Shown piece after piece: positions 1,079 to 53,060 of a DNA stretch of 64,000 bases. Source of the DNA: an uncultured Alphaproteobacteria bacterium (lineage in GTDB: Bacteria > Pseudomonadota > Alphaproteobacteria > Rs-D84). The DNA lies in contig CAJOGD010000005.1 in NCBI GenBank assembly GCA_905233975.1, positions 10,362 to 74,361 of the forward strand. The letters are read 5' to 3'. The notes below the pieces were generated by a model. It worked only from the letters and a program-made list of their open reading frames with translations, was not told where the DNA came from and ran no database searches. A program made the position numbers and the translations under genes. Numbering within the stretch: position 1 is the first letter of the stretch; each line of letters opens with the position of its first letter.

Positions 1079-1164
1079 AAATTTTTCACCATACCGCCAA
1101 CAACTGGTTATTTTTTGCCATTATAACTTAAAAACTTGCAATTTCCAGTATAAAGATTATAATT

Positions 1165-1480
1165 GGTCCGTCACGAAAGTGATGATGATTCTGAACCCGA
1201 TGCGGAATAGTCGTTTTGGACCCGGGGGCGGTACCCGGCACCTCCACCAATAAAACATATGGGGGTGTCATAGTTTCGACAGACGCAATAAAGGCATATG
1301 GCTGAATCCGACATGGTTGTCGTAAAAGACCAATAAAAATATGAATGCGAACGATAATCCTCGTCCGCTTGCAATGGCCGCCTAATAAAGGATTGGACAC
1401 CGTTGGCGATTGTTGACTGTGTCTGTTTTGGCTTTTTGCGGGGTTCGCCCGGGTACCTGGCACCAGAAACCCGGCATTTA
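1165..1480 (+). ncRNA. ssrA: tmRNA (ssrA), two-piece / circularly permuted gene
   Basis: Tag reading frame GCG AAC GAT AAT CCT CGT CCG CTT GCA ATG GCC GCC TAA (ANDNPRPLAMAA*) at 1347-1385. The acceptor 3' strand CACCTCC-A-CCA at 1239-1249 lies 11 nt UPSTREAM of the 5' acceptor strand GGGGGTG (1261-1267); they pair 7/7 with the conserved G3:U70 wobble. A TTGCAA-N16-TATAAT promoter sits near 1136-1163. The T-loop is non-canonical and the ends are approximate. Confidence 0.6.
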
Positions 1481-7218: not shown

Positions 7219-7251
7219 TCACTTGTTTTTTATTTTCGTTTTCTGATATAC
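7219..7251 (+). promoter_or_regulatory. sigma70-like promoter candidate (TTGTTT-N18-TATACT)
   Basis: Read directly from the sequence. Points toward the paralogue-1 gene. Confidence 0.3.
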
Positions 7252-7449
7252 TAATTTTGTCGGTGGGTGTTCCGCCGATGGGGATTCAAGACCCGATCAT
7301 AGGTTGTCCAAGGGACATAAAAAAACTCCAACCCGCACAGAGGTTGGAGGGATGCGAATAATGTAGGGCATTCGCCCATGCAAAATAAGCACGCAATCCC
7401 TATGAATTGTCTTGAACCTCCAACCACACGTTTTCGGTGGTGTTTTTTG

Positions 7450-7481
7450 CTAGTGTTAGTGTAAGTGGCTAGTGGTTAGTG
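7450..7481. repeat. TTAGTG heptamer array
   Basis: ctagtgttagtgtaagtggctagtggttagtg directly 5' of the RBS of paralogue 1. Confidence 0.8.
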
Positions 7482-7503: not shown

Positions 7504-8643
7504 ATGCAATTAAAAAAGTTTTTGTTATTCGGGTTGATGGCGGCGGTGTTGCCGGCGGTGGCCGAAGAAGCCGCGGACCGGAAAACAGCAACGTCGTTAA
7601 AATACGTCACACACGAATTGGAAACACGACAAAATAAATTTACCGCGGAACAAAACAAAGCCATGGAATACACAAATTCGGCCGGCATGGTGCAAAAACG
7701 CGCCGTCACATCGGATTTGGATAATGGCGGGACCGAATCGCTGCCCATGGTTGGTGGCGTTAATACAAAATTAAATCAAAAACAGGACGACATCGCCGCC
7801 GTCAACGATCACACTGCGGTCACATACACCGGAACGGCCGGGACAATCGGGGAAAAGGGTATTTACCAAACAACCGAATCGTATGCCGCCCAATCGGATA
7901 ACCTGATTGACGCGAAAACATTTAACGCCGCATTAAAGAACGGACTTGATAACGAATTCAAATGCAGGGATTATAAACCAGATACAGACCTTTGTTGGGT
8001 TTATTCGATTCATAATCCAACAACGGATAACACACTTTTGCCGCCCGGATATACCCCATTGGAATGGATTGAATCCGACGGGCATCAATATATTGATACG
8101 GGTTTAACATCTTTCAAAAACACAGATGTATTAAAAATGAAAATCCGGCCAACCAATGTGACCAGCACAACATTCCTTGCTTTTCAAAATCCAACCTCAG
8201 GCTTAGAACAGCAGGGTTTATTTTTGGCTGAATCTATGCTGAATTATCAATATGGGACGGCGCCCAGACTGAGAGCTCCGGTTGCCGTAAATACAGATTA
8301 TACAATAGAGGCAACCAATGGCAGACTGAAAGTCAACGAGACCACACGAACCGGCGAATTATATCCAGAATTCACAATAAATTATAACCTGCTTATTGGT
8401 ACGGCCGCGACCAGTAGCACACCGGAATCACGCATGTATTCTGGACGGATATATTATTTCCGATATGAAGATAAAAATGGCAATATACTGTTCAATGGCA
8501 TTCCCGCCAAGAACAGCGCCGACAAAGTTGGCGTGTACGATATGGTGTCGGGGCAATTCTTCCCGAGTATTCCGGCAAACACGAACTTCGCCGCCGGTCC
8601 AGAGTCAAATGATACTAACATTTATATTCCCCAGAATCAATAA
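7504..8643 (+). CDS. secreted variable-C-terminus protein, paralogue 1 (lectin/fibre-like?)
   Basis: Signal peptide MQLKKFLLFGLMAAVLPAVA. An N-terminal ~200 aa is ~85% identical to the ORFs at 26431 and 43634(-); the C-terminal half is divergent but ends in the invariant YIPQNQ. Contains the motif GYTPLEWIESDGHQYIDTG. Confidence 0.85.
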   Translation: MQLKKFLLFGLMAAVLPAVAEEAADRKTATSLKYVTHELETRQNKFTAEQNKAMEYTNSAGMVQKRAVTSDLDNGGTESLPMVGGVNTKLNQKQDDIAAVNDHTAVTYTGTAGTIGEKGIYQTTESYAAQSDNLIDAKTFNAALKNGLDNEFKCRDYKPDTDLCWVYSIHNPTTDNTLLPPGYTPLEWIESDGHQYIDTGLTSFKNTDVLKMKIRPTNVTSTTFLAFQNPTSGLEQQGLFLAESMLNYQYGTAPRLRAPVAVNTDYTIEATNGRLKVNETTRTGELYPEFTINYNLLIGTAATSSTPESRMYSGRIYYFRYEDKNGNILFNGIPAKNSADKVGVYDMVSGQFFPSIPANTNFAAGPESNDTNIYIPQNQ

Positions 8644-8767
8644 CGTCATACCGCCGCAAGGCGGTATCTTCTTATTACCGCCGCGGGCCGAAACTCCCCT
8701 TTCCATTGGAAAGGGGAGTTTGCTCTCTACAGGCCTGGGGAGATACCGGCTTGCGCCGGTATGACGA
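8644..8767. repeat. composite REP-like palindromic elements
   Basis: gtcataccgccgcaaggcggtatc hairpin, AAACTCCCCTTTCC-att-GGAAAGGGGAGTTT hairpin, and gagataccggcttgcgccggtatgac hairpin. Confidence 0.8.
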
Positions 8768-8796
8768 CACTAATCACCTACACTAACACTAACCAC
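8768..8796. repeat. CACTAAC heptamer array
   Basis: cactaatcacctacactaacactaaccac followed by ttttttacttg, the same 3' context as at 7215. Confidence 0.8.
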
Positions 8797-9003: not shown

Positions 9004-9045
9004 CTCTACAAGCCCGGGGAGATACCGGATTCCGCGGCATGACGG
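9004..9045. repeat. REP-like element (ctctaca...gagataccgg...catgacgg type)
   Basis: Related to 8719-8762 and to the reverse complement of 34071-34110. Confidence 0.7.
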
Positions 9046-9148: not shown

Positions 9149-12100
9149 ATGAAGAAAATCGCTAGATTCCTTGGTTTTCTGGGCTTTTTTGGCGCGGCGC
9201 TTGGTGGTGTATTATTGTCGGACGCACATGCGGCCACCCCTTGTAACGCCGGCTACTACGGTATGGGTCCTGGTACTACCGAAGGTTGCACCGCTTGTCC
9301 AAGTCCCTATACCAACAGTGCATCTGGCTATAACAGGTACGAGGCGATGTGTTATGAGTCATGCGGCACAACGTGCGAAGATGTGTCAAACAAGTATGCC
9401 ACAACAACCGCCTATGGTTTGCCGACGGGATATACGGTTAATACGTCCCTGGGGACCAGCACACAGGTTTTATTTCAATCACTTGATGGCCTTGTTTCAT
9501 GCAGCAACCTCGACGGGATGTGTCCTTTGATTGTCACGTGCGATTCTTCATCCTCTAGTGATGCATGTAAAATAAGTTGGAAAAGCGTCGAATTTCTTGA
9601 TCTTAATGGTGAGATAATCGGGAAACCGCTCTATATTGCCTTTGGCCACTTTTGGAGTTCACAGAAAGTTCAAGGTGGATACGATACAGGAACCGGAACA
9701 AATATTTCATATTCCGCATTTTATCCGGTGTTTGATACGCCAACGGCACCAACCGTTGCGAACCGGCCTTTCTTGGGATATTCCAGGGAATCAAGTTATT
9801 ATGACGGAACGATTCCGGCCGAACCTTTATATAATCATGGTAAGTTGACCTCCGCAAACGCCTTGGCAACCGTTGATGGCGTAAGTGGCGAGCAGCCAGT
9901 GAGACTTTATGCGTTCTATGAATGTGAACCGGGGTATGAATGGAATATTAATGATAGCGAATGCCAACCAAAACACTATAAGACAGTACAGTATGATTGT
10001 AATGATAATGGCCATCATATCATACTAGATTATGATGGTGCGACGTTTGGCGAACGGTATGTTGTCCAAAACAACAATGTTGATATAACCGCTTGTACTC
10101 CGCATGTCCAGGGGACACAGATTGTAAAGTGGCAGATCACAAATAACAATGGCGGAACCGATGAACATCTTCCGGGGGCCCAGATTGAATGGGCTTACAC
10201 CCCCGCAGGGACCCCTACTTTCTATGCGGTATGGGGACAGACAACCTATAACATTACATATCACCCAAACGGTGGCACAGGGGATTCGGGCAATCATCCG
10301 GCAACGTATGATGCTACCGATTTGCCGCTTTCGATTACCTGGGTGCCGGAACGTGCCCACAGTGTTTTTGAAGGCTGGTGCAAGCGTGAGAATTTAACAG
10401 AATGTAGTGCGATACCATACGAAATACCAAGCGGAACGACGGGTGATATTAACCTGTATGCAAAATGGAGTTGCGACCCCGGATATATGCTGAGTGGTAA
10501 TTCATGTGTAGAGAGTAACGAATTGCCCGTAAGATATGAATGTGGCGACGGCGCCACCGGCGGGCCCGCAACCGATACGGCAACATACCATGACAGTTAT
10601 ACGGTCAGGGATGTTGATTATGCACTCTGTTCCAAAACGGGCTATACATTTAGTGGTTGGGCCTTTTCAGGCGGTGGTTTATATTACGGAGGGAATGTCA
10701 TCGATTCATGGATTTATACAACCGAACAAACATTCACCGCAAAATGGACGGCAAATGAATATCGCATAGACTATAAAAATATGGCACATTCCGCGCCGGT
10801 AAGTGGTATGCCGGATTCATACGAATACGGTGTGGGGGCTACAATAAACGGCACGCCAAGTCTTGCCAACGGGAGTTTTGAGGAATGGTGTCGCGACGCG
10901 ACTTTGGCGGACTGTGCCTTGCCACTGACCATCGCAACGGACGAAACCGGCGACAAGGTATTATGGGCAAAATGGAAATGTGCTACGGGATTCACACTTA
11001 GCAACGACAAGGATTCTTGCGAAGCGGACACATACACAGTGACGTATCAGTGCGGCGCACATGGCACCGGCGCCAATGTCACCGATACCGCAACATATCA
11101 TGCGAACTATGTTGTGCAGAATAGTAATGTAAATATCACCTGTACACCAGACAGCGGATACGAATTTACAGGTTGGAAATTTAGTGGTGATAATCGTGAC
11201 TATGTCCAAAATGACGAGATTTATTGGGAATACGCAAATAACAGCGAAACTCTGACGGCACAGTGGGATACAGCGACATATACCATTCAATATGAAAACA
11301 TGACCAATGCGACCGCTGCGCAGACCGGCATGCCGTCGAATTATACATACGGGGTTGGTGCAACAATTGACGGTGTTCCGACACGTGCAAACAGTGAATT
11401 TGCGGGTTGGTGCACAGATGAAACTTTGGAAAACTGTGCGATGACGCAAACCATTGGCACAACGGCAACAGGGGATAAAACATTCTGGGCAAACTGGGAA
11501 TGTTTGCCACCGTATCATTCGAATGCAAATGGCACCGCGTGCGTGGCCTGTGAGGCCGGGTATTATTGGAATGGCACCGATTGTACCACCGCCTGTCCAC
11601 CCGAATATCCATACAGTCGCAGCCCATATAACTGGAGTATCGATCAATGCTATAACTATTGCGACACCGCGACATGCGAAAGCTATAATGTGTCCGGTTT
11701 CCCAAATGGTTATACGGCAGAACCTATTGATTCTTCTTCAAAGCAGATTACATTCTATGGTAATGCCAGGAATGGTATAGATGCGTGCGATGGAACGGTC
11801 AAGTATTGCGCGTATGGGTTTGCTTCAACCCCGGGGGCATTACCATCGACATTGTATAAACCAATGACGGTGCCGGTTGACTTCTATGGTCATATGCCAC
11901 AAGAAAACCTTGGGACGTTGTATATATTTGGTAGTCGTGCCGGCGGTAGCAGCATAGATATTAACACCGGCGATGTATGGAGTCAGATTGTCGGCCCCGG
12001 TCAGCAGACACAGGTAATAAACAACACACAAACCGGCCTTACATATCAATACACGCCTATATTCTATCCCGCGGATATGGCGCCTAATGCCGATGTGACG

Positions 12101-15100
12101 GGATATACGTTCGATGGATACTATTATCCAGAAAACGGCAGCACCCAATATGTAGGCAGCGACTATGTATTGAATGCGACGAACGCCCTGGCTGTTATTA
12201 ATAGTGGCCAAACCGGCGGATACAATATCCCGCGCAAACTGTATGCGACGATGAATCATGGTTATAGCCTTGGCTGTTATAAAGTGAGTTTCAATAACAG
12301 TTGGCATGGTGGAACGCCGACAACCAGTACGTTAAGTTTCTATAAAAAGGGAACCAGTTGGTATGCGGGTACAGATTCAAATTGTACGGGCACACCAATC
12401 GCAAATCCAAGCGTGGCGAATGAATTACCAACCAAAACCAACGCAACGTTTACCGGGTATTATGATGAGTCTGGACCAGATTTGATGATTTTTGATGCAA
12501 ATGGTGCGGCAACCACGTACGCAAATATTTGGACGATTACAAGTGACACAACATTGTATGCGCAATATACATGCGACGCGAATGCACATCAAACATCGAA
12601 TGACGCATGTGTTGTGTGTACCGCGCCGACCGCATGTTGGGATAACAATACCGAACAATGCGTTGCATGTGCAGTAGTTGATCACACAATAACATTGGAC
12701 AAGAATGTTGGTGGTTTGCAAGGTGATGACAGCAGCCCGTCGATATTGTACACTGTGGAAGGTCAAGGTGTTTATACGGACCTTGCAACCGAAAATCCAT
12801 TTACCGCATTAACAGCGGTGCCGACCAAGTATGCAATCGTTACATTTAATCATTGTGACGGCACAAATGGGGCGTGTGATTCGACGGCCAATACCGAAAC
12901 CAAAAATTCTGATTTCCCATTCGTAGGTTTTTATGACACAACCTCCGCCATCAATGTTATATCAAACAATGGTAATTTGACCAATGATGGTTATACCAAT
13001 GCCATTGGGTTGCATGGTGATGCGACGTGGTATGCACGTTGGGGAATACATGGAATGATTGCCCATTGGCCGCAAAACCCAACGCGTTCCGGTTATAACT
13101 TTGTTGCATGGAAAGATGAACCTAACTGTACGGGTAATACGATGACATCGACCAGTTATATAGATACAGATACGACGCTGTATGCATGTTGGACGATGAA
13201 TACATCTTATGAATGCCAGGTGTATTGCGATGCGACGTTAAGTACATGTCCTTATCAAAATGCAAGCTGCGAATATGATGAAACGCAATACCAATCGGGA
13301 CATAACAATGGTGTTTCTGGGGCGCCATGCCTTGACGACGATGGGCATGAAATCGTCGCGGTGGCATGTCCGATTAGTAATGTCAGTTGCACACAGGCCG
13401 GGTATATCTGGGTATCAACAGACGAACAGTGCGAACAGTGCACATGCACACTGGGAACGGGCGTAGATACATGCACACCGTCTTCGGTTGGTAATCAGTG
13501 CACCGCGACGGGTTCGTGCGCCACCGGATACGTGAACTTTACACCGAATTGTTCCGGGACAACATGCGAACCTTACTGTGGTGCGAATACATTTACGGTA
13601 AATTACGAATGCGGAACACATGGTGCCGCGGCATCGGGCTATGACATGTATAACACCGCGACGTATGGTGCCGGGTACAAGGTCGCACATCAGTCATACA
13701 CCAGTTCCAATGTGATTGCACTGTGTAATCCGAACACCGGTTATGTGCTTGCGAATCCGACATGGAAATTAGAAGGCACATCTTACACCGGCAATACGGG
13801 TGATGTGATTGCGTCGTGGCAATATAGCATGAGTGCGCCAAAATTCATCGCACAGTATGATTGCGATACGGCGAATTTCTGGTTCCATAATTCATCAAGT
13901 GACACGTGCGTTCTGTGTAATGGCGCAAATGAATATTGGAATTCCACAACCGAAAGTTGCGGCCAATGCGGCGCGGGAACGTATCCGAATGCCGCACACG
14001 ATGCATGTATCAACGAAGGTCAATATGAAATAACCCTTAACAAGAATGTTAATTCTGGGGCGGTGCATGGGGTTGACGGGCAAACAACACTTTACACAGT
14101 GCACAATACCGGCGTTTATCGCGACGCGGCAAGAACGGCCGAAATGACGACCGCCGGCAATCCTTTGACCGAAGGAAATTTACCAAAGAAATATGCAATT
14201 GTGACATTCAATCACTGTGATGTTGATAACGATATACTCTGCACCAATCCGGCAAACACCGAAGACGTTGTTAATGCCTACTTTGCGTTCAATGGTTTCT
14301 ATCAAGATACGACCACAGGTTCAAAGTACATAAACGAGTATGGGTATATTACCGACGGTGCAAATGGCGGTATGACCGTTGGTGCGGGCTATACAGACAA
14401 CAATCATGTATGGTATGCGCACTGGGCCGCCCAGGGTATATTGAACGGATTCCCGGCCAATCCAACACGTGCGGGATATACTTTTGTTGAATGGCGGACG
14501 TTACCGAACGGAATGGGAACCGTTGTACCAAATAATCAGACATACACTGTGACGGCGGATACAACATTGTATGCAAATTGGGCTGCGAATGCATACGATA
14601 TACATTATGTGTTGAATGGCGGTGAAAACTATCATGGCGCCCCAACAAGTTATTCATATGGCACAGGTGCACAAATCAATGGCACCCCGACCCGCGACAA
14701 CAGTCAATTCATCGGTTGGTGTGATGATGCGGCTTTGACACAAAATTGCGACAAGGTGCGCGTAATAAGCGGAACCGAAACAGGCGACAAGACGTTCTAT
14801 GCGAAATGGACCTGCGATTGTGGTTATTCGGCAACCCAAAATGGCCAGGGTTGTGTTGCGAATACCATTACCGTAAATTATCAAAGCGAATATGGGACGG
14901 TGCCTGCATCGGGGACATGCACGTATAATGATGTTAATGGATTCACATTGGCGTCTGCAATTGACGCCCAGGGCCACGACTTTAGTGGTTGGGCGATGAA
15001 TTATCAACGCTTTAATGCCGGCCAAACCGTTGCGTGTAATTACACGACATTTGGTGTGTGCAATGGTTCTGTGAACGCCAACGCAATTTGGGGCGAAGCA

Positions 15101-17806
15101 AACACGTACAGAATAGATTATATAATGAACGGTGGTGTAAACTATGACGGCGCGCCAACAAGTTATATGTATGGCATTGGTGCACAAATTAATGGGACCC
15201 CAACCCGCGCCAACAGCCAATTTGTGGCATGGTGTGATGATGCCAATTTAAAGGTGAATTGCGCAAGGAACAAAATCATGGACTCAAATGATTCCGGCAA
15301 CAAGGTATTCTATGCCAAATGGTCTTGTGATTGTGGTTATGCGCCGACGTCAAATGCAGAGGCGTGTGATGCGAATACCATTATCCTGAATTATAATAAT
15401 GGTGGTCATGGCAATGCGCAGTTACCGGCGGCATATTGTACTTATGGCAATAATTTCCAATTGTACAACGCAATTTCGGCCACTGGTTATGAATTCAGCG
15501 GTTGGTCGGTAAATAATGATACCATATCGGCGGGCGCAACAGTTGCCTGTGATAATCAAACCCTTGGTGTTTGTGATGGTTCTGTGGTGATTAGTGCCAC
15601 ATGGGGGACAAATACCATAACACTTGATTGGGACGAAAATCATGGGACAGAGATTCCGAATGGTTCTTGCCAATATGGTGATACACTGGCACTGGCGTCT
15701 GAATTACCAAATCGCACAGGTTATACGTTCAGTGGTTGGGAATTGGTTAATAGCATCGTAAAGGCCGCGGGAACAACGGTTAGTTCGGGTTGTACCGAAA
15801 CATACACCGGCGTCACAAGCGGAACAAGCCATGGAATCAGGGCTGTATGGTGCCACAATTGTATCCAACCGGCGGTGCAAAATGTATGTTCGTTGAATAC
15901 AGAAGGTCCGGGCGATTGTGTGTATACCTATACTGAATGTCCCCAAGGATATACGCTGTATATCCCACAGGAAGCGCCTTGGAACCCGAGTTGTGTTCAA
16001 AATCAATACACCATTACGTATTCCGCCAATGGTGGTACAGGTGCGGACCAAACACAAAATGTGTTCTTTGGATCCACGTTCGTGACAAGACCGCGGTCGA
16101 TATTCACTAATTCTGGATATATGTTGACGAAGTGGCGCATTGCAGATGCAACGGCCACGTATGACCCGGATACAAGTTATACTTATGACATCAACGGCAA
16201 CACAACGTTAGAGGCGACATGGGAAAGATGCACCTGTTCGTATGCGGGCAACAGCGGTGTCCAAGCCTGTGATCCTTATTCAACGGCAAATAGTACATGT
16301 GGCGGAACGGCAACATGTTTGGCACACTTTGTAAATCCGACTGTCACATGTGCCAATGACGGACCGGCGTGTACGGCGACATGTACAGAATGTGGTGCGG
16401 GTTATATATCGGTAAATGATAACTGTGACCCATGCGACCCGGGACATTATCAATCGGGCAACGAATGTCCACAATGTTCGGGCAATACAATTGCGCCGAA
16501 TCCGGGTGCGACATCTTGCGTGGAATGTCCGGAATATACATTGGCAAATGCGGAACACACACAATGTTTGTATTGTCCGACGGGTTCTATCTTGGTGAAC
16601 GGTGTTTGTGAACAGTGTACGGCGGGACATTATCAATCCGGTAATGATTGCCCAATATGCCCGGGCAACACGATTGCCGCGAATCCGGGTGCGGCATCTT
16701 GTACGGAATGTCCGGAATATACATTGGCAAATGCGGAACACACACAATGTTTGTATTGCCCGACGGGTTCTATCTTGGTGAACGGTGTTTGTGAACAATG
16801 TGCGGCGGGGCATTATCAATCCGGTAATGATTGCCCAATATGCCCGGGCAACACGATTGCCACGAATCCGGGTGCGACATCTTGTACGGAATGTCCGGAA
16901 TATACATTGGCAAATGCGGAACACACACAATGTTTGTATTGTCCGACGGGTTCTATCTTGGCGAACGGTGTTTGTGAACAATGTACGGCGGGACATTATC
17001 AATCCGGTAATGATTGCCCAATATGCCCGGGCAACACGATTGCCGCGAATCCGGGGGCGGCATCTTGTACGGAATGTCCGGAATATACCGTTGCGAATCA
17101 AGATCATACCGCATGCGCGTCATGTCCGGCGGGTTCTATCTTGGTGAACGGTGTTTGTGAACAGTGTGCGGCCGGTACATATCAATCGGGCAATAGTTGT
17201 GTCCAATGTCCCGCGGGTAAAACATCATATGCTGGCGCAACATCGATAAATGATTGCTTTATTGATCCGGGCACATGTGCCCCAGACGAACACGTCGAAC
17301 AAGGCGAATGTGTTAGCAACACCAAGGAATGCACTGTGCCGCATGCAACGTCCGCAAAACGCGAATGGAATGCATCGATTGGAACATATGGCCCATGCGT
17401 TGTTGAAACCTGTGACGAAGCCAATGGTTATCGTGTGTCGGGCAATGCATGCGTAAAAGATTCCTGTGTTGTGGAACATGGTAGCGCCGAAACAGAATGG
17501 AACGTTGCCGACAATCGGTGGGAATGCATTGTCACGAAATGTGATCCGGGCTATGAAAGAAGCGCCGATGACAAATCTTGTGTTGAATGCTATAACCGTC
17601 GCGTTGATGGCGAAATCGCGGTCAGCAGTTATGTATCCGAATGCGAAATTGCCGCATGTATGTACCAAGGTCAAAAGTACACTTTGGACGGTAATGAATG
17701 TCGCCTTATCTGTGAAGAAAAGACCGATGAAACCGGGTCAATGATTTGGGATAATATAAGGAAGCAATGCGTCCGGACATGCAACAAGGGTTATAAGATG
17801 TGGTAG
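9149..17806 (+). CDS. giant secreted Cys-rich surface protein with Listeria-Bacteroides (Flg_new-type) repeats
   Basis: 2885 aa with signal peptide MKKIARFLGFLGFFGAALGGVLLSDAHA. At least 12 modules match the List_Bact repeat consensus (GYTFSGW ... LYAKW). The C-terminal third is CxxC-rich, including four near-identical 61-aa tandem repeats. Confidence 0.85.
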   Translation: MKKIARFLGFLGFFGAALGGVLLSDAHAATPCNAGYYGMGPGTTEGCTACPSPYTNSASGYNRYEAMCYESCGTTCEDVSNKYATTTAYGLPTGYTVNTSLGTSTQVLFQSLDGLVSCSNLDGMCPLIVTCDSSSSSDACKISWKSVEFLDLNGEIIGKPLYIAFGHFWSSQKVQGGYDTGTGTNISYSAFYPVFDTPTAPTVANRPFLGYSRESSYYDGTIPAEPLYNHGKLTSANALATVDGVSGEQPVRLYAFYECEPGYEWNINDSECQPKHYKTVQYDCNDNGHHIILDYDGATFGERYVVQNNNVDITACTPHVQGTQIVKWQITNNNGGTDEHLPGAQIEWAYTPAGTPTFYAVWGQTTYNITYHPNGGTGDSGNHPATYDATDLPLSITWVPERAHSVFEGWCKRENLTECSAIPYEIPSGTTGDINLYAKWSCDPGYMLSGNSCVESNELPVRYECGDGATGGPATDTATYHDSYTVRDVDYALCSKTGYTFSGWAFSGGGLYYGGNVIDSWIYTTEQTFTAKWTANEYRIDYKNMAHSAPVSGMPDSYEYGVGATINGTPSLANGSFEEWCRDATLADCALPLTIATDETGDKVLWAKWKCATGFTLSNDKDSCEADTYTVTYQCGAHGTGANVTDTATYHANYVVQNSNVNITCTPDSGYEFTGWKFSGDNRDYVQNDEIYWEYANNSETLTAQWDTATYTIQYENMTNATAAQTGMPSNYTYGVGATIDGVPTRANSEFAGWCTDETLENCAMTQTIGTTATGDKTFWANWECLPPYHSNANGTACVACEAGYYWNGTDCTTACPPEYPYSRSPYNWSIDQCYNYCDTATCESYNVSGFPNGYTAEPIDSSSKQITFYGNARNGIDACDGTVKYCAYGFASTPGALPSTLYKPMTVPVDFYGHMPQENLGTLYIFGSRAGGSSIDINTGDVWSQIVGPGQQTQVINNTQTGLTYQYTPIFYPADMAPNADVTGYTFDGYYYPENGSTQYVGSDYVLNATNALAVINSGQTGGYNIPRKLYATMNHGYSLGCYKVSFNNSWHGGTPTTSTLSFYKKGTSWYAGTDSNCTGTPIANPSVANELPTKTNATFTGYYDESGPDLMIFDANGAATTYANIWTITSDTTLYAQYTCDANAHQTSNDACVVCTAPTACWDNNTEQCVACAVVDHTITLDKNVGGLQGDDSSPSILYTVEGQGVYTDLATENPFTALTAVPTKYAIVTFNHCDGTNGACDSTANTETKNSDFPFVGFYDTTSAINVISNNGNLTNDGYTNAIGLHGDATWYARWGIHGMIAHWPQNPTRSGYNFVAWKDEPNCTGNTMTSTSYIDTDTTLYACWTMNTSYECQVYCDATLSTCPYQNASCEYDETQYQSGHNNGVSGAPCLDDDGHEIVAVACPISNVSCTQAGYIWVSTDEQCEQCTCTLGTGVDTCTPSSVGNQCTATGSCATGYVNFTPNCSGTTCEPYCGANTFTVNYECGTHGAAASGYDMYNTATYGAGYKVAHQSYTSSNVIALCNPNTGYVLANPTWKLEGTSYTGNTGDVIASWQYSMSAPKFIAQYDCDTANFWFHNSSSDTCVLCNGANEYWNSTTESCGQCGAGTYPNAAHDACINEGQYEITLNKNVNSGAVHGVDGQTTLYTVHNTGVYRDAARTAEMTTAGNPLTEGNLPKKYAIVTFNHCDVDNDILCTNPANTEDVVNAYFAFNGFYQDTTTGSKYINEYGYITDGANGGMTVGAGYTDNNHVWYAHWAAQGILNGFPANPTRAGYTFVEWRTLPNGMGTVVPNNQTYTVTADTTLYANWAANAYDIHYVLNGGENYHGAPTSYSYGTGAQINGTPTRDNSQFIGWCDDAALTQNCDKVRVISGTETGDKTFYAKWTCDCGYSATQNGQGCVANTITVNYQSEYGTVPASGTCTYNDVNGFTLASAIDAQGHDFSGWAMNYQRFNAGQTVACNYTTFGVCNGSVNANAIWGEANTYRIDYIMNGGVNYDGAPTSYMYGIGAQINGTPTRANSQFVAWCDDANLKVNCARNKIMDSNDSGNKVFYAKWSCDCGYAPTSNAEACDANTIILNYNNGGHGNAQLPAAYCTYGNNFQLYNAISATGYEFSGWSVNNDTISAGATVACDNQTLGVCDGSVVISATWGTNTITLDWDENHGTEIPNGSCQYGDTLALASELPNRTGYTFSGWELVNSIVKAAGTTVSSGCTETYTGVTSGTSHGIRAVWCHNCIQPAVQNVCSLNTEGPGDCVYTYTECPQGYTLYIPQEAPWNPSCVQNQYTITYSANGGTGADQTQNVFFGSTFVTRPRSIFTNSGYMLTKWRIADATATYDPDTSYTYDINGNTTLEATWERCTCSYAGNSGVQACDPYSTANSTCGGTATCLAHFVNPTVTCANDGPACTATCTECGAGYISVNDNCDPCDPGHYQSGNECPQCSGNTIAPNPGATSCVECPEYTLANAEHTQCLYCPTGSILVNGVCEQCTAGHYQSGNDCPICPGNTIAANPGAASCTECPEYTLANAEHTQCLYCPTGSILVNGVCEQCAAGHYQSGNDCPICPGNTIATNPGATSCTECPEYTLANAEHTQCLYCPTGSILANGVCEQCTAGHYQSGNDCPICPGNTIAANPGAASCTECPEYTVANQDHTACASCPAGSILVNGVCEQCAAGTYQSGNSCVQCPAGKTSYAGATSINDCFIDPGTCAPDEHVEQGECVSNTKECTVPHATSAKREWNASIGTYGPCVVETCDEANGYRVSGNACVKDSCVVEHGSAETEWNVADNRWECIVTKCDPGYERSADDKSCVECYNRRVDGEIAVSSYVSECEIAACMYQGQKYTLDGNECRLICEEKTDETGSMIWDNIRKQCVRTCNKGYKMW
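16445..17175. repeat. tandem repeat, period 183 bp, about 4 copies, >95% identical
   Basis: The gggacattatcaatccggtaatgattgcccaatatgcccgggcaac unit recurs at 16445, 16628, 16811 and 16994. It encodes the repeated peptide CEQCTAGHYQSGNDCPICPGNTIAANPGAASCTECPEYTLANAEHTQCLYCPTGSILVNGV. Confidence 0.9.
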
Positions 17807-26031: not shown

Positions 26032-26139
26032 AATTTAACCTTTCCATGGAACAACAGAATAACACCGGCCGATGTAAAAAGCAAATAGTTATTACAACAT
26101 TAACGGGCGCGTAAAAAAGTGCTTGCGTTATAAAAGCAC

Positions 26140-26378
26140 ATTCTGTTAGAATAATGATTGAGCCAAGTGGGAACTTGGTTCGGGGCTGTGAGAAGCCCGT
26201 CGTATCCGGTGCAAAGCATCGCAATCCATTGTGATTTCCCAAGTGTTTTGCACCGTTATAGGTTTGACCCCGATGTTGGGGTGCCGTCGGTTATAATGCC
26301 CCTGGCAAAAGGCCGCGGAATCAACGATACGATGATTTCTCAACACCCCGACCGCGTGGTTTCCATTGCGGCACTTAT
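26140..26378 (+). promoter_or_regulatory. conserved structured 5' leader of paralogue 2
   Basis: About 85% identical to the reverse complement of 44995-45235. Stems covary (GGGCT-gtgaga-AGCCC vs GGGC-tatagcag-GCCC; CCCC-gatgtt-GGGG vs CCCC-aatgtt-GGGG). Contains TATAAT. Confidence 0.6.
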
Positions 26379-26430: not shown

Positions 26431-27597
26431 ATGTTTTTAAAAAAGTTTTTGTTGTTCGGGTTGATGGCGGCGGTATTGCCGGCGTTGGCGGAGGAAGCCG
26501 CGGACCGGAAAACCGCAACGTCGCTTAAATACGTCACACACGAATTGGATACGCGTCAGGATAAATTTAGTGCGGAAGCGAACAAGGCCATGGAATATAC
26601 AAATTCGGCCGGGGACGTGCAAAAACGTGCGGTCACATCGGAGCTGGGGACCAGCACGTCCGACACATCACTGCCCATGGTTGGTGGTGTGAATACTAAA
26701 CTGGCCACAAAACAAGACGACATCGCCCCCGTCAACGATCACACTGCGGTCACATATACTGGGCAAAGCGGCAGTATCGGACAAAAGGGTATTTACCAAA
26801 CAACCGAATCGTATGTTGAACAAAGCGATAATTTAATCGACGCAAAAACATTCAACGCGGCATTAAAGACGGGACTTGATAACGAATTCAAATGTAGGGA
26901 TTATAAACCGGATACAAATCTTTGTTGGGTTTATTCTATACATAATGAAACCGAAGATAATACGCTTGTCCCAGAGGGATACACGCCACTTGAATATATC
27001 CAATCCGACGGATCGCAAATGATTGATACCGGTATCGATGGCTTTGATCCCGGTGATTGGGAAATTTATGTAAAATGGATGATAACCGGCGAACCAACCG
27101 GTGATTATCCATATATATGCGGTATATATGATGGTGAATCATACAATACATATAGAATTATATTAGACCATACCAGCACTGCCCAATATCTTGTTAATGG
27201 GAACAGTAGAGCTGGTGGTGGCAGCGCACGCGTTTCTGCACCGGCAAATGTGATTCATGAAGGAACAATCCATAATGGTTATGTCCTGTTTGATGGTGTG
27301 CGATATAATACGCCGACACAGGGGATGCAGGGTGGCACAACCAGCGTTAATAGAACTATTGGTCTATTTGGTTTTGTAGCTAGTACACCAAAAATTGTTG
27401 GTCGCATGTATGCCGCGTATGCAAAACAAGATGGTGTAATGAAGTATAACTATATACCCGCGCGCCGCGATAGTGATAACAAGGTTGGCATGTGGGATAC
27501 GGTTAGCCGAACATTTAAAACAAATTCCGCCAACGGTAATGACTTTGCCCCGGGGCCGGTTGTGCAGAACAATGTCTATATTCCGCAAAATCAATAG
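26431..27597 (+). CDS. secreted variable-C-terminus protein, paralogue 2
   Basis: Starts at MFLKKFLLFGLMAAVLPALA with RBS aaggggag. Conserved N-terminal half, divergent C-terminal half, ends VYIPQNQ. Confidence 0.85.
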   Translation: MFLKKFLLFGLMAAVLPALAEEAADRKTATSLKYVTHELDTRQDKFSAEANKAMEYTNSAGDVQKRAVTSELGTSTSDTSLPMVGGVNTKLATKQDDIAPVNDHTAVTYTGQSGSIGQKGIYQTTESYVEQSDNLIDAKTFNAALKTGLDNEFKCRDYKPDTNLCWVYSIHNETEDNTLVPEGYTPLEYIQSDGSQMIDTGIDGFDPGDWEIYVKWMITGEPTGDYPYICGIYDGESYNTYRIILDHTSTAQYLVNGNSRAGGGSARVSAPANVIHEGTIHNGYVLFDGVRYNTPTQGMQGGTTSVNRTIGLFGFVASTPKIVGRMYAAYAKQDGVMKYNYIPARRDSDNKVGMWDTVSRTFKTNSANGNDFAPGPVVQNNVYIPQNQ

Positions 27598-27661: not shown

Positions 27662-27985
27662 TTATCCGTTGCAACGACCGCAAGTGTTATTGCGGATAAC
27701 GCGGCGTTCGGAATAAACACCCGCCGGTTCATAGACCGTCACAGGACGATAAACCTGGTAATGGTCAACGACTTCGGTGTGTGTTTTTACGCGGACCGGT
27801 TGTGCGCATGAATTGCAAGTATATGCAACCGCAGCCCTTGCCGGTTCGGCATACGTGACCGTATTCGTGTTATAACGAACACTGTTCGTATATGTTTCGG
27901 TTTCGCTATAGACGCCGCCATCAGACGCGCATGCGCACGTGGCAACCAAGGCACCGAATAAACCACTTAAAATTGTTTTTTTCAT
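27662..27985 (-). CDS. small secreted/lipoprotein (hypothetical)
   Basis: Signal peptide with lipobox-like ATCAC, 107 aa. Confidence 0.45.
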   Translation of the reverse strand: MKKTILSGLFGALVATCACASDGGVYSETETYTNSVRYNTNTVTYAEPARAAVAYTCNSCAQPVRVKTHTEVVDHYQVYRPVTVYEPAGVYSERRVIRNNTCGRCNG

Positions 27986-33623: not shown

Positions 33624-33667
33624 AAACTATTCACCCCCTTTGGCGATGTTTGATGTTTGTCCCCGGC

Positions 33668-33742
33668 GTCATACCGCCGAAAGGCGGTATCTCGTCGTCA
33701 CAGCTGAATCCACGAGATCCCGGCCTGCGCCGGGATGACGAC
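33668..33742. repeat. REP-like palindromic elements (gtcataccgccgaaaggcggtatc + cccggcctgcgccgggatgac)
   Basis: Same hairpin families as at 8644 and 44834. Confidence 0.75.
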
Positions 33743-43466: not shown

Positions 43467-43626
43467 CGTCATACCGCGGTAACGCGGTATCCCCCTGGGC
43501 TTTACCGAGAATTAAATCTCTGCCGGCCCGACGGGATTCTGGTTTCGCTCGGCTTACTGCCTGCGCGCAAATTTGTAGTTGTTTGAACTTCGCTTACGCT
43601 CGTTCTCACATACAAATTTTCGCCGG
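43467..43626. repeat. ~160-bp composite repeat, copy A (direct repeat of 44834-44990)
   Basis: gtcataccgcggtaacgcggtatc ... ccgacgggattctggtttcgctcggcttactgcctgcgcgcaaatttgtagttgtttgaacttcgcttacgctcgttctcacatacaaattttcgcc. Identical to copy B over the last ~95 bp. Confidence 0.9.
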
Positions 43627-43633: not shown

Positions 43634-44809
43634 TTATTGATTCTGTGGGATATAGACATTGATGGTTACCTCTGGTCCCGCCTCAAAGTTTGTCCCATCA
43701 ACCGCACTTTTAAGGAATGTCTGCGATACGGTATCATACATACCAACATCATTGCCATGTTTTGCCGGAATAAGGTTGAATTTTAATACGCCGTCTTCTT
43801 TGGCCCATGCACTTGATATTTTCGCTTTTGCCTTCATTGTGACACTTGAAGAAGTTCGCGCAAACAGCCCCAAATTATAATTTGCCGTCCATACTGTGGT
43901 GTTCGGGGTCGAAGATGTCGCGACCAATGTTCCGTTTAAGTGCATTTTGTTTTGGTCATAGAATGCCTCGTACCATGTATTCAATGACTTAAAGTCCGAT
44001 ATATCGATGATAGATCCGGTGGTTGTATTTCCCCAACCAACGCGATTAAAACTACTTGTTCCATCTACTAATCGCAACACGCCATTATTGGCTGTATTAA
44101 CAGATGGTGTATCAGTCACACCAAACACCGCAGACGCCGTTTCGTTACCATTTTGCCATACGTTGTATTTGACATATAACTGGGTTTTGTTATTTACACG
44201 ATATGGGATCCGCATATATTGTGTCCCGTCGGATTTAATATATTCCAATTCTGTATATCCGTCCGGCAGGGTGTTTCCGACCGTTCCATTATGTATTGTA
44301 TATAGCCAACAAAGGTTGGACACCGGATCGCGGTTGTCTTCCCTACATACGAATTCGCTATCAAGACCATTCTTTAACGCCGCATTAAATGTTTTTGCGT
44401 CAATCAGGTTATCGGATTGTGCAGCATACGATTCGGTTGTTTGATAAATTCCTTTCCGCCCTATTCCACCCGGTTGCCCGGTGTATGTGACGGCGGTGTG
44501 GTCGTTGACCGCGGCGATGTCGTCCTGTTTTTGGTTTAGTTTTGTATTTACACCGCCGACCATTGGTAATGATGTGTCGGACGTGCTGGTGCCCAAATCA
44601 GATTTGACCCCGCGTTTTTGCACGTCCCCGGCCGAATCGGTATATTCCATGACTTTGTTTTGTTCCGCGGTAAATTTATCCTGACGCGTATCAAGTTCGT
44701 GCGTGACGTATTTCAATGACGTTGCGGTTTTCCGATCCGCCGCTTCTTCCGCCACCGCCGGCAATACCGCCGCAATCAACCCGAACACAAACAATTTTTT
44801 CAAATGCAT
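43634..44809 (-). CDS. secreted variable-C-terminus protein, paralogue 3
   Basis: MHLKKLFVFGLIAAVLPAVA signal peptide, conserved N-terminal half, divergent C-terminal half ending NVYIPQNQ. Confidence 0.85.
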   Translation of the reverse strand: MHLKKLFVFGLIAAVLPAVAEEAADRKTATSLKYVTHELDTRQDKFTAEQNKVMEYTDSAGDVQKRGVKSDLGTSTSDTSLPMVGGVNTKLNQKQDDIAAVNDHTAVTYTGQPGGIGRKGIYQTTESYAAQSDNLIDAKTFNAALKNGLDSEFVCREDNRDPVSNLCWLYTIHNGTVGNTLPDGYTELEYIKSDGTQYMRIPYRVNNKTQLYVKYNVWQNGNETASAVFGVTDTPSVNTANNGVLRLVDGTSSFNRVGWGNTTTGSIIDISDFKSLNTWYEAFYDQNKMHLNGTLVATSSTPNTTVWTANYNLGLFARTSSSVTMKAKAKISSAWAKEDGVLKFNLIPAKHGNDVGMYDTVSQTFLKSAVDGTNFEAGPEVTINVYIPQNQ

Positions 44810-44833
44810 ATCGCTCTCCTTTTCTTTTTTGTC

Positions 44834-44990
44834 GTCATACCGCCGAAAGGCGGTATCTCCTCAGGCTTTCCTGAGAATTAGTCCGCGACGGTTCCGACGG
44901 GATTCCGGTTTCGCTCGGCTTATTGCCTGCGCGCAAATTTGTAGTTGTTTGAACTTCGCTTACGCTCGTTCTCGCATACAAATTTTCGCC
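44834..44990. repeat. ~160-bp composite repeat, copy B
   Basis: Same orientation as copy A. Together the two copies bracket paralogue 3. Confidence 0.9.
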
Positions 44991-44994
44991 GAAT

Positions 44995-45235
44995 CGCCGC
45001 AATGGAAACCACGCGGTCGGGGTGTTAGCAAATCATTTGTGTCAAAGATTCCGGTGGCCTTTTGCCAAGGCATTATAACCACAGGCACCCCAACATTGGG
45101 GTAAATCCATAAAACGGTGCAAAACACATGGGAAACCATATGGATACGATGCTTTGCACCGGACACAAATGGGCCTGCTATAGCCCCGAACCAGATTCCC
45201 ATCTGATTCAATGTGTATTCTAACAAAAATTGCAA
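44995..45235 (-). promoter_or_regulatory. conserved structured 5' leader of paralogue 3
   Basis: Its reverse complement aligns to 26140-26378 with covarying stems. Confidence 0.6.
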
Positions 45236-52401: not shown

Positions 52402-53005
52402 ATACAGGATATTCGGCGTTTGATTTTTCAAGCAATTTATTCGCGACATCCGGCAATTTGATTAAAACCTTGCTAAACGACGGAATCGTGATTTCGGTAT
52501 TAAATACAGGGCTTTCATTAACAAACGCCAAGCCGGGCCGTATCACAAAATCCGTCATGCCATCATTTGTCAGCGAAAATTCAATTGATGAAATTTCTAT
52601 GCGTTCATCAAAAACCGAATCCGAAACCAACATCGACGCAAAACTATCCGATGTCCGCAGCGACAAAGTATCGTCCGCCACATAGAAATATATTCCGTTT
52701 TCGACCGGAATTGGTTTAGATAAATCATGGACTATCGCGATTGGCAAAGAAAAATTCGCATAGTCGTTAAAGCCATCTGTGGAACCACACTTATTAAAAT
52801 GCGCGGCAATTTTGCGCTTTTCAAATGCGGTCTGAATTTCCGCAATCGAATCTTCATCGCAAGACATAACATACACACGCACATCAACCATCAGGGCCTT
52901 GTTCGCATCCGACAAAATATCTGACACATTCAATATCGCACTTAATTTAACCGTACACGCAACCAGCGCAAAGATGGCAATAAAAACACCAATGATTTTT
53001 TTCAT
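52379..53005 (-). CDS. lipoprotein (hypothetical)
   Basis: MKKIIGVFIAIFALVACT lipobox. 208 aa. Confidence 0.5.
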   Translation of the reverse strand: MKKIIGVFIAIFALVACTVKLSAILNVSDILSDANKALMVDVRVYVMSCDEDSIAEIQTAFEKRKIAAHFNKCGSTDGFNDYANFSLPIAIVHDLSKPIPVENGIYFYVADDTLSLRTSDSFASMLVSDSVFDERIEISSIEFSLTNDGMTDFVIRPGLAFVNESPVFNTEITIPSFSKVLIKLPDVANKLLEKSNAEYPVFTFVRND

Positions 53006-53060
53006 ATATTCTCCTTTCCTTGCCCATCAGTGTATTAAAAAACGAAATATAAAATCAATA

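Follow-up and report, generated by a model that had tools for sequence, protein, structure and literature searches.

A candidate family of modular, secreted and probably surface-located lectin-type binding proteins with a conserved structured leader RNA in the alphaproteobacterial order Rs-D84

Background

Among the closest described counterparts of the proteins analysed here, in organisation, are the mosaic adhesive trimer (MAT) fibres of Bdellovibrio bacteriovorus, of which a single genome encodes 21 members (Caulton et al. 2024, PMC10769870). In MAT proteins the signal peptide is directly followed by a conserved domain of ~130 residues without a homologue in the PDB, and the variable C-terminal binding tips, which include phage-like modules, are thought to have been swapped during evolution (PMC10769870). 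They form trimeric β-helix/prism fibres of ~1000 residues in which the tip is terminal, and 13 of the 21 have an S74 chaperone-protease at their end (PMC10769870). Compared by description, the present family is alike in organisation only, with a signal peptide, a conserved N-terminal domain (the N-module), variable modules and many paralogues. Its members, however, are only 185-590 residues long and have neither a β-helix shaft nor a Pfam-detectable S74 domain; their variable module does not form a terminal tip but lies nested, with an invariant tail of 8 residues behind it, and a structured RNA leader precedes each gene.

Other known systems share individual features. Phage receptor-binding and tail-fibre proteins have two classes of the variable modules (classes a and b) in common with the family, and the best structural matches are proteins of uncultured gut Siphoviridae, but here the modules sit on a carrier of N-module and tail that is absent from viral data, the products bear a Sec export signal and the genes are single chromosomal genes outside phage regions. 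A hypervariable centre with conserved ends on either side, tracts of gene conversion among paralogues and many copies in a small genome are likewise features of Anaplasma Msp2/P44, Neisseria pilE/pilS and Borrelia vlsE; in contrast to these, the family has no single expression site and no silent cassettes, and its loci and types of cassette do not change from strain to strain. The fold predicted for residues ~180-370 is the β-sandwich of LamG/LNS and pentraxin domains and of the ConA-like superfamily, although the domain matches no curated model of the LamG/LNS and ConA-like families and reaches only 8-19% identity. Riboswitches and attenuating leaders resemble the leader in being sense-strand 5' UTRs with several helices, a pseudoknot, strong covariation and a hairpin before the ribosome-binding site, but the leader has no Rfam match and precedes genes for putative secreted binding proteins, not metabolic or transport genes.

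Genomes of Rs-D84 measure 0.67-1.6 Mb, lack biosynthetic pathways as well as the standard sugar and amino-acid transporters, and are inferred to belong to partner-dependent organisms (PMC12306168), which recalls the host of the MAT fibres, an organism that lives off other cells (PMC10769870). Members of the order (Enterousia) are widespread in gut and rumen, none has been cultured, and their attachment to partners is still unexplained (PMC12306168). In the PMC open-access subset and bioRxiv we found no match to the domain signature TGTQYIDTG and, among the papers listed, nothing relevant on surface proteins of Rs-D84.

Results

Three family genes in the window

The window, i.e. the whole 64-kb stretch of DNA that was analysed, contains three complete family ORFs, designated A, B and C (Table 1), in agreement with a preliminary description which had placed a three-member family at 7504, 26431 and 43634. 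No further family copy was found in the window by tblastn combined with a scan for the tail motif. For gene B the start was set at the ATG at 26431, the mechanical ORF start being a GTG at 26389; a protein identical to its product (P0014) is present in public data.

Table 1. Coordinates of the family genes, their parts, leader RNAs, promoters and associated insertions in the window
Feature	Position	Strand	Remarks
Family gene A	7504-8643	+	379 aa; complete ORF
Gene A, signal peptide	7504-7563		
Gene A, N-module	7564-8028		
Gene A, nested LamG-like class-a domain	~8038-8604		
Gene A, tail	8617-8640		NIYIPQNQ
Type-2 leader RNA of gene A	7255-7445	+	nhmmer E=1.4e-58
Putative promoter, gene A and leader	7223-7252	+	TTGTTT, 18-nt spacer, extended -10 TGA-TATACT; by inspection
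Family gene B	26431-27597	+	388 aa from ATG; GGGGAG ribosome-binding site upstream
Gene B, signal peptide	26431-26490		
Gene B, N-module	26491-26958		
Gene B, class-a domain	~26968-27561		
Gene B, tail	27571-27594		NVYIPQNQ
Type-1 leader RNA of gene B	26158-26378	+	nhmmer E=2e-54; covariation
Putative promoter, gene B and leader	26123-26152	+	TTGCGT, 18-nt spacer, extended -10 TGT-TAGAAT; by inspection
Family gene C	43634-44809	-	391 aa; complete ORF
Gene C, signal peptide	44750-44809		
Gene C, N-module	44276-44749		
Gene C, class-a domain	~43670-44269		
Gene C, tail	43637-43660		NVYIPQNQ
Type-1 leader RNA of gene C	44992-45211	-	nhmmer E=3.7e-58
Putative promoter, gene C	45246-45241 and 45222-45217	-	TTGACC, 18-nt spacer, TAGAAT; directly upstream of leader; by inspection
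REP/MITE-like insertion	44833-44991	-	159 nt; between gene C leader terminator and ribosome-binding site
Second direct copy of the insertion	43467-43625		159 nt; just after gene C stop codon

Conservation along the three proteins is strikingly uneven, as seen from per-region alignment statistics. Signal peptides are 70-90% identical, the N-module (residues 21-175, ~155 aa) 81-84% in protein and 78-81% in DNA, and the junction LP.GYT.LEYI.SDG.Q 68-76%; identity then falls to 19-27% over the middle ~125 residues and recovers to 45-58% over the last ~54, where the final YIPQNQ is invariant. Taken whole, the C-terminal domains (~190 aa) share 19-33%, and the middle of gene A searched alone gave no significant BLASTP match to the middles of B or C. 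The near-complete divergence of the C-terminal halves noted earlier is therefore borne out by these middles, whereas the ~200 N-terminal residues called nearly identical prove to be a shared module that is highly similar rather than near-identical. Similarly, the YIPQNQ end holds throughout but the exact motif strings quoted do not: C reads QYMRIPY and not QYIDTG, A reads VGVYDMVS, and B has VGMWDTVS and GPV. Between the N-modules dS is 0.7-1.05 and dN/dS 0.12-0.17, a ratio that indicates purifying selection on this part, and the variable half is saturated. The pattern lies far beyond chance, since a search of public data retrieved 284 homologues.

All three genes stand singly, scattered among housekeeping genes; their neighbours include an MFS transporter, tRNA-Met, Mla, RNase E/G, LPG synthase, PBP1, LysRS and RNase J. 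Their surroundings gave no sign of a prophage or tailocin, and the sole mobile element of the window, an integrase island at 52-63 kb, bears no relation to them. The window itself probably comes from an Enterousia-like member of Rs-D84 with a reduced genome, an assignment based on the shared gene family and the alpha-tmRNA. With housekeeping neighbours and the same synteny in a second strain, the prophage or tailocin origin first suggested for the genes is not borne out. The idea of silent C-terminal cassettes fares no better, as neither silent, truncated nor promoterless cassettes were found in the window, and every examined copy is full-length and individually equipped with promoter, leader, ribosome-binding site and signal peptide.

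The variable domain and its phage relatives

The AF2 model of the gene A class-a domain (residues 180-370, pLDDT ~90) is a β-sandwich which Foldseek matches to agrin G3, neurexin LNS and PTX3 (probability 1.0, E~3e-5, TM 0.5-0.58), with CBM40 and a Bacteroides carbohydrate-binding protein also amongst the PDB fold matches. Sequence identity to the LamG/LNS and pentraxin structures is 8-19%, and searches of the three proteins and of 12 class-a domains returned no Pfam or NCBIfam match to the curated Laminin_G, LamG-like or ConA-like models. A weak 14-bit match to DUF5536 was not reproduced on the 12 class-a domains and was set aside. The variable part is one predicted fold in A, B and C, a LamG/ConA-like β-sandwich, and the jelly-roll, lectin-type character anticipated for it is upheld at the level of predicted structure.

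Within the class-a domain the conserved parts are the first strand (LPxGYTxLEYI) and the last strands (IPAxxxxxVGMYDTVSxxF...GP), the remainder being highly diverged. LG domains have adjacent N- and C-termini and, on the opposite side, a variable rim that binds ligand. Such a geometry would suit nesting of the domain within another protein, and would explain why conserved first and last strands surround a variable middle.

Class-a domains are encoded on at least 176 IMG/VR viral contigs. The alignment with one viral-contig ORF, which adjoins an endolysin gene, reaches an hhalign probability of 99.9% (E 2.8e-32), and in BFVD the fold is matched down to E 3.5e-14, with TM 0.76 to a 200-residue gut siphovirus protein. 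Class b was found at 17 viral-contig loci (hhalign 98.7%, E 4e-16), and the contigs bearing either class have the modules near endolysin and tail-fibre-assembly genes. The viral link covers classes a and b, the class-c alignment being too diverse for the viral-contig scan. It is visible only by profile and fold comparison; tblastn of gene A and P0005 against 50,697 phage genomes gave no match (E <= 0.01). The kinship with phage fibres proposed for these proteins consequently stands for the distal domain, through the 176 viral contigs and BFVD, but not for the constant half as a fibre shaft, which has no viral, PHROG or PDB match. A LamG-like domain family common to bacteria and gut phages and without a Pfam model is as yet uncatalogued.

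The constant frame

The N-module is modelled (pLDDT 76) as three helix-plus-β-hairpin repeats with a disulfide loop at the end, and AF2 confidence for the gene A N-module is low (pLDDT <50). Foldseek found no PDB fold match for the model, and the N-module has no match in Pfam, PHROGs, PDB or IMG/VR; the three proteins and the family profiles together gave nothing significant in Pfam, NCBIfam, PHROGs or PDB sequences. The second constant element is the 8-residue C-terminal tail (consensus [VIL]Y[LIVM]P[QST][GN][NQ]). Minimal relatives of 185-215 residues consist of the N-module, about 8 residues and then YVPQNQ, with no variable part, so that the terminus, noted earlier as invariant, belongs to the N-module frame and not to the variable domain. 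In the AF2 model of a minimal protein the tail is not placed on the N-module. The tail is conserved as protein even across genera in which the N-modules are only ~40% identical, and this, together with its presence in the minimal proteins, argues that it is not merely a DNA handle. N-module and tail motif make up a newly described, uncatalogued pair.

That the proteins are secreted, as proposed earlier, agrees with the predicted Sec signal peptide and Cys-Cys loop. For export beyond the periplasm, no lipobox, β-barrel, sortase-type signal or nearby secretion genes were found.

A structured leader RNA precedes the family genes

Each of the three genes is preceded by a leader of one of two subtypes. 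The type-1 leader of gene B folds into P1, P2, a pseudoknot, a long-range P3, P4, P6 and an invariant GUUGGGGUG/CACCCCGA helix, and has at its 3' end the terminator-like hairpin CCGCGUGG...CCAUUGCGG; that of gene C is 80.5% identical to it, with compensatory changes. The type-2 leader of gene A shares the P1-P2-pseudoknot design and also has a GGUUGGAGG/CCUCCAACC pair and, at ~7420-7450, a terminator hairpin with T-run. Type-2 homologues precede family genes in L014, L021 and L255, and their pseudoknot covaries (TTCAAGA/TCTTGAA, GTAACGA/TCGTTAA, CTCGAAA/TTTCGAG).

In a covariation set of 21 sequences from several genera, 88.6% of cells in the helices are paired versus 35-49% when the partners are slid, and the covariation score is 0.441 versus ~0.1 in controls. 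The pseudoknot is 100% paired over the 21 sequences, four of its five pairs being compensatory; 35 of the 56 pairs are changed on both sides, and none of 500 shuffles reaches the observed values. Frequent G-U pairs fix the sense strand, and the single-stranded blocks are invariant. The leader is found in front of family genes irrespective of their class. Before the ribosome-binding site all copies show a hairpin and T-run, with stem sequences that vary between genera; in the MAFFT alignment this terminator-like hairpin is only 59.5% paired, and no alternative pairing or anti-terminator was resolved. On this comparative evidence, a conserved, pseudoknotted structured RNA of ~200-220 nt in two subtypes is well supported. 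None of the 4227 families of Rfam 15 matched it at gathering threshold or at E-value <= 10, which makes it an uncatalogued RNA.

A pattern scan of metagenomes for the leader was too unspecific: of its 120 loci most were chance matches and about 8 proved real after nhmmer filtering, and partial nhmmer matches at 18-30 bits were put down to the scan pattern itself. The putative promoters and terminators rest on conservation and inspection, and were not called by a consensus scanner. In the gene B promoter the TTTGTTAGnAT block is conserved across genera, and the gene A promoter is conserved in L014 and L021.

Two possible modes of action were considered and set aside. A leader peptide starting at the conserved ATGATTT is contradicted by copy C, where the frame stops after three codons, and the bases that follow covary as RNA pairs. 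Sequestration of the SD sequence by a C-rich block is unlikely to be essential, as REP-like elements are inserted before the ribosome-binding site in several copies. Such insertions between leader and ribosome-binding site occur in gene C, L254 and L255, and argue against any mechanism that needs a fixed distance from leader to SD. The two copies of the 159-nt element that flank gene C are 86.8% identical by self-BLAST.

Family size and module classes

Amongst the matches listed, 117 of 120 homologues have the N-module, and their C-terminal parts fall into at least four classes. Regardless of class, nearly all of these 117 have a YIPQNQ-type tail ([YF][IVL]PQ[NGDE][QN]) as their terminus, and in the six matches without the N-module the tail is absent too. 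On the same N-module we observed modules a, b and c and the tandems c+a and a+a, the tandems being borne by the longer members; five classes were verified on a single 214-kb contig. Better-sampled genomes contain 5-11 family loci each and a fifth genome one, and many loci lie at contig ends. The exchange of modules proposed at the outset is therefore seen at the level of the family, but not amongst A, B and C, where no swap of fold has taken place since all three carry the same one. For the same reason, the divergence of A, B and C could be old rather than a product of recent swapping.

Recombination tracts in a strain comparison

A comparison between strains, as the preliminary description had proposed, found recombination tracts in the family genes. 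In the alignment with syntenic orthologues of the near-identical strain TONG22-1, identity is 99-100% for flanking genes and leaders but drops to 73-83% in 150-nt windows of the family genes, where pS reaches 0.4-0.7 beside stretches with pS 0. In nucleotides 181-240 of the N-module, paralogues within the genome are 87-88% identical as against 68-75% between orthologues. In this comparison the mosaic tracts and the gene conversion between paralogues are confined to family genes, and orthologues in the two strains carry the same cassette at the same locus.

Discussion

On balance, we consider it somewhat probable that these genes encode secreted lectin-type binding proteins of modular build, probably located at the surface and under riboswitch-like control, and that the family is large, undescribed and specific to reduced-genome Alphaproteobacteria of gut and rumen (Candidatus Enterousia and relatives, order Rs-D84). 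Its frame comprises the signal peptide, the ~155-residue N-module and the 8-residue tail, with one or two interchangeable β-sandwich modules nested between the last hairpin and the tail. The N-module and tail may anchor the protein at the cell surface or form a stalk there, in a bacterium presumed to rely on other cells, and the ligands of the modules may be glycans of partner cells, of host mucus or of feed particles. Diversification is seen in module shuffling between frames and in recombination and gene-conversion tracts limited to family genes. The leader, in turn, may control read-through into the gene in the manner of a riboswitch or attenuator.

An unlikely alternative is that the proteins are periplasmic or released and bind glycans for nutrient capture or scavenging rather than adhesion, their module diversity matching the glycans available. 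It is consistent with export signals limited to the Sec signal peptide, with no outer-membrane anchor or secretion partner recognised, and with a LamG/ConA-like fold common in carbohydrate-binding modules (CBM40 and the Bacteroides carbohydrate-binding protein being amongst the matches); likewise, Rs-D84 lacks the standard sugar and amino-acid transporters (PMC12306168). The family genes, however, show no linkage with genes for transporters or glycoside hydrolases, and the N-module, built of repeats, looks together with its invariant tail like a means of attachment or assembly. Phage tail-region proteins contain homologous modules, and mosaic recombination at the level of strains is a typical mark of exposed surfaces under selection.

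Considerably less probable is a history of ordinary old paralogues, in which the C-terminal domains simply drifted while the N-terminal half was constrained, with no mechanism of exchange. One fold in A, B and C, purifying selection on the N-module (dN/dS 0.12-0.17) and saturation of the C-terminal half are what such drift would leave behind, but drift does not account for different and tandem module classes on the same frame, nor for the gene C domain, which is 60-61% identical to domains of P0111 and P0105, proteins of unrelated architecture without the N-module, and only 31-33% to those of A and B. The tract-like mosaicism between strains, with pS jumping from 0 to 0.7, and the tract in which paralogues are more alike than orthologues also speak against it.

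Programmed antigenic variation of the Msp2/P44, pilE/pilS or vlsE type, where silent cassettes rewrite one expressed copy and conserved ends act as recombination handles, is largely refuted and very improbable. The conserved 5' half and 3' end around a hypervariable centre, the gene-conversion tracts between paralogues (N-module nt 181-240) and the many copies per small genome are reminiscent of such systems, but all examined copies are complete and individually equipped for expression, with no cassettes in the window, the tail is conserved as protein across genera and is present even in minimal proteins, and two strains have the same cassette at the same locus. Additionally, a dS of 0.7-1.0 between the N-modules of the paralogues implies that homogenisation is not rapid. 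Least probable of all, and hardly credible, is a derivation from domesticated prophage or tailocin tail fibres, for although class-a and class-b modules are homologous to viral-contig domains near endolysin and tail-fibre-assembly genes, the family genes stand alone among housekeeping genes and away from the window's only mobile element, encode signal peptides, and have an N-module without a match in IMG/VR, PHROGs or the 50,697 phage genomes.

Conclusions

Under the favoured reading of a modular family of lectin-type binding proteins, a bolder and rather doubtful extension is that the family forms the partner-recognition apparatus of a gut alphaproteobacterium obligately dependent on partners, in which a lineage-specific stalk displays binding modules drawn from the phage-tail pool and a new riboswitch-like leader governs the whole repertoire. 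If true, the cell would attach itself to other microbes or to glycans of the host in nearly the way of a phage, and the leader class would sense a signal that is possibly partner-derived. The family fills a visible share of a genome of ~1 Mb or smaller, and this share, together with its phage-type binding modules, its recombination and a dedicated RNA control element, makes it an obvious candidate for the interface between these bacteria and their partners.

Architecture of the genes and of their family

Typical Sec signal peptides (M.LKKFLLFGLMAAVLPAVA followed by EEAADRK) begin the products of all three family genes (A, B and C), in agreement with the preliminary description of these products as secreted. 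Behind the signal peptide, the N-module (residues 21-175) is 81-84% identical among the three proteins (78-81% in DNA); amino acid identity is 68-76% in the junction region, 19-27% over the central ~125 residues and 45-58% over the last ~54 residues, with the final YIPQNQ the same in all. These region-wise values confirm the pattern noted at the outset, a conserved N-terminal half, a diverged C-terminal half and a constant end. BLASTP of the central part of A against B or C gave no significant similarity, and the 64-kb window holds no additional family copy or fragment. The N-module has diverged among the copies to dS 0.7-1.05 (dN/dS 0.12-0.17) and the variable half to saturation, so that the two halves have different histories.

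Features of the window
Feature	Position	Strand	Remark
Two-piece (permuted) alphaproteobacterial tmRNA	1132-1478	+	Rfam RF01849, 172.6 bits
Leader of A	7255-7445	+	second subtype, common to L014, L021 and L255
Gene A	7504-8643	+	complete ORF, 379 aa
Palindromic REP/MITE-like pair	8644-8769		after A stop codon
Other REP/MITE-like sites	9019-9044; 33667-33696
Giant secreted ORF	9149-17806	+	2885 aa; tandem repeats at 16398-17223
Leader of B	26158-26378	+	type 1, conserved ~200-220-nt pseudoknotted RNA
Gene B	26431-27597	+	complete ORF, 388 aa
107-aa ORF	27662-27985	-	immediately downstream of B, convergent
159-nt direct repeat around C	43467-43625; 44833-44991		one copy between C leader and ribosome-binding site
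Gene C	43634-44809	-	complete ORF, 391 aa
Leader of C	44992-45211	-	type 1, conserved ~200-220-nt pseudoknotted RNA
17-nt repeat AGTGTAAGTGRTTAGTG	1055, 7179, 7192, 7458, 8768, 26388, 51247	both
Low-GC island	~52000-63100		27-35% GC (44-51% elsewhere)
AAA_15/AAA_21 ATPase	59659-60957		low-GC island
Phage-type integrase	61303-62814		low-GC island
tRNA-Gly	62948-63024		adjoins low-GC island

A search with C returned 284 homologues, none of them named, mostly from ENA metagenome assemblies and a few labelled 'MAG: Alphaproteobacteria bacterium'. Among the 120 matches listed, 117 carry the N-module, and at least four unrelated classes can be told apart in their C-terminal parts: class a (LPxGYTxLEYI ... 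VGMYDTVS..F...GP), which includes A, B and C, class b (...QDGTPTPTNPIYP...VTVYYPLATPVEEDW), class c (NLFD...NTTYT.S...Q.E.GSTATPY.PY) and singletons. Longer members contain tandem modules (c+a or a+a). A tail of the (V/I)Y(I/V)PQNQ type ends almost all N-module proteins among these matches, independent of the module, and is absent from six matches with a class-a domain and no N-module. When the N-module was used in an exhaustive profile search, 307 cluster representatives emerged. Among them are minimal relatives (185-215 aa) in which ~8 residues separate the N-module, itself behind a signal peptide, from a terminal YVPQNQ, and a sister subfamily (~310 aa) whose N-module has two repeats and is combined with these three module classes and with tails like NLYLPSGN. 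Since the minimal proteins keep the tail and class-a proteins lacking the N-module are without it, the tail is part of the N-module frame, with variable domains inserted behind the last hairpin (C...CW.Y.IHN) and ahead of the tail; such nesting explains the invariant terminus. In distant relatives (P0280, P0350, P0363 and others) the N-module is joined to several Cys-rich domains of the type 'WG..F.YG...G.S.CS ... CWCK' and the end is different (...FR..MF....); this is a further architecture of the superfamily, likewise undescribed.

Predicted folds and relation to phage proteins

The AF2 model of A, built on a 47-sequence alignment, has a beta-sandwich at residues ~180-370 (pLDDT ~90) and pLDDT <50 in the N-module. 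Its Foldseek matches in the PDB are LamG/LNS (agrin G3, neurexin), pentraxin and other ConA-like lectin folds (E ~3e-5, TM 0.5-0.58), which upholds the lectin-like jelly-roll domain proposed for the C-terminus. In LG domains both termini lie together, with the ligand-binding rim on the opposite side; if this geometry holds, the nested domain would rest on its conserved first and last strands and expose its diverged middle. For the N-module, the model of the minimal protein P0273 (pLDDT 76) shows three repeats of a 13-residue helix and a beta-hairpin, in agreement with three sequence repeats (TATSLKYVTHELDTRQDKF, SLPMVGGVNTKLNQKQDDI, NLIDAKTFNAALKNGLDNEF); it has no fold match in the PDB. Searches of Pfam, NCBIfam, PHROG and PDB sequences matched no part of the proteins.

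The suggested likeness to phage or lectin-type receptor-binding proteins holds for the modules but not for their carrier. Profiles of classes a and b matched 176 and 17 viral contigs, respectively (class b hhalign 98.7%, E 4e-16), whereas searches of IMG/VR with the N-module, and of 50,697 deposited phage genomes with whole family proteins, found no relative. Against BFVD, the A model matched uncultured gut Siphoviridae proteins (E 3.5e-14 to 1e-10), with a TM of 0.76 to a 200-aa protein. Class a aligns (hhalign probability 99.9%, E 2.8e-32) with a 549-aa ORF directly upstream of an endolysin gene at locus L157, and at L165 it lies within a 2276-aa ORF near a tail-fibre-assembly gene. These similarities show that the modules are homologous to domains of phage tail-region proteins.

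Recombination and diversification

The near-identical strain TONG22-1 has syntenic orthologues of A, B and C. Flanking genes and leaders are 99-100% identical, whereas 150-nt windows within the family genes drop to 73-83%; recombination is limited to the latter. From one 25-codon block to the next, synonymous differences leap from 0 to 0.4-0.7, a pattern characteristic of imported tracts, not of point mutation. At N-module nt 181-240, B and C of one genome are 87-88% identical and orthologues 68-75%, which demonstrates gene conversion between paralogues. The C module is 60-61% identical to modules of P0105 and P0111, which lack the N-module, against 31-33% to those of A and B, a relationship that demonstrates module transfer between frames. 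Modular exchange is supported at the level of the family; silent cassettes were absent from the window, and the cassette type at each locus is constant across both strains.

The giant secreted ORF, with GYTFSGW-type (Flg_new-like) repeats, has a TONG22-1 orthologue of 3416 aa; DNA identity falls to 70-85% from about nt 9700 (flanks ~99%), and it is a second hypervariable surface-protein locus. The REP/MITE-like elements end in GGAGATACCG-n6-CGGTATGACG, and inserts of similar kind occur at L254 and L255 of another strain. The dispersed intergenic 17-nt repeat (7 occurrences in the window, 0.2 expected) is found beside promoters or ribosome-binding sites, among them those of tmRNA, tRNA-Met, A and B.

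A structured leader RNA

A ~220-nt block upstream of B and C is 80% identical. Immediately ahead of family genes of other genera it recurs at 68-77% identity, and it is also found in rumen metagenomes. The type-1 fold, supported by 21 sequences, has P1 and P2 as hairpins, the loop of P2 forming a pseudoknot with a segment on the 3' side; P3 is a long-range helix around P4 and P6, and the helix GUUGGGGUG/CACCCCGA is invariant. Pairing reaches 88.6% of cells (35-49% with slid partners), and covariation scores 0.441 versus ~0.1, a level attained by 0/500 shuffles; pairing of the pseudoknot is complete (100%), and 4/5 of its pairs are compensatory. G-U pairs establish that the RNA is read in the sense of the gene. 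On the 5' side of the leader is a conserved putative promoter with an extended -10 (TGnTAGAAT), and on its 3' side, 20-50 nt upstream of the ribosome-binding site, a terminator-like hairpin with a T-run that varies in sequence among genera with pairing kept. The A subtype follows the same P1-P2-pseudoknot plan, and its pseudoknot covaries as well. One subtype or the other precedes every family gene examined, independent of module class, and the RNA is likewise present ahead of the minimal proteins of the N-module family and of a small number of other secreted proteins. The RNA has no match in Rfam 15, and we read it as a putative cis-acting riboswitch-like or attenuator element.

Genomic setting

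A, B and C each stand singly among housekeeping genes (Obg, Lon, MFS transporter, MlaEFD, RNase E/G, LPG synthase, PBP1, LigA, FabI, LysRS, RNase J, AlaRS). The two-piece tmRNA speaks for the window being of alphaproteobacterial origin. Beside B, the 107-aa ORF (signal peptide, several Cys, no family match) is kept at the equivalent site in TONG22-1. The low-GC island, which also has several ORFs without a family, probably represents an integrated island of mobile or defence type and has no relation to the family genes.

The genomes with the N-module are rumen and gut Alphaproteobacteria MAGs and Candidatus Enterousia sp.; among species-representative genomes, four better-sampled MAGs have 5-11 loci each and a fifth has one. 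The loci are frequently at contig ends, as expected of repeated genes; one 214-kb contig carries five verified members (classes a, a, a, c+a, b), and nine cluster representatives come from a contig of this length.

Functional implications

The observation in the preliminary description stands, and its interpretation in part. The proteins combine a Sec-type signal peptide with a constant frame in which exchangeable LamG-like and other modules are nested, behind a structured leader. The family is undescribed, yet of a known kind, that of paralogous modular binding-protein families with exchangeable tips; new are the N-module, the nested topology with its tail motif and the dedicated structured RNA. 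The MAT fibre family of Bdellovibrio is its nearest analogue in organisation, with differences in size, shaft, terminal tips and S74 domain (PMC10769870).

The family members are probably binding proteins. The repeat-built N-module, closed by the tail, would form a stalk or anchor on the cell surface, and the leader may gate read-through into the family gene. Enterousia and the order Rs-D84, to which the window probably belongs, have 0.67-1.6-Mb genomes with most biosynthesis missing and are inferred to depend on other cells for living (PMC12306168). The modules may bind glycans of partner cells, host or feed, and selection on the exposed face would maintain their diversity.
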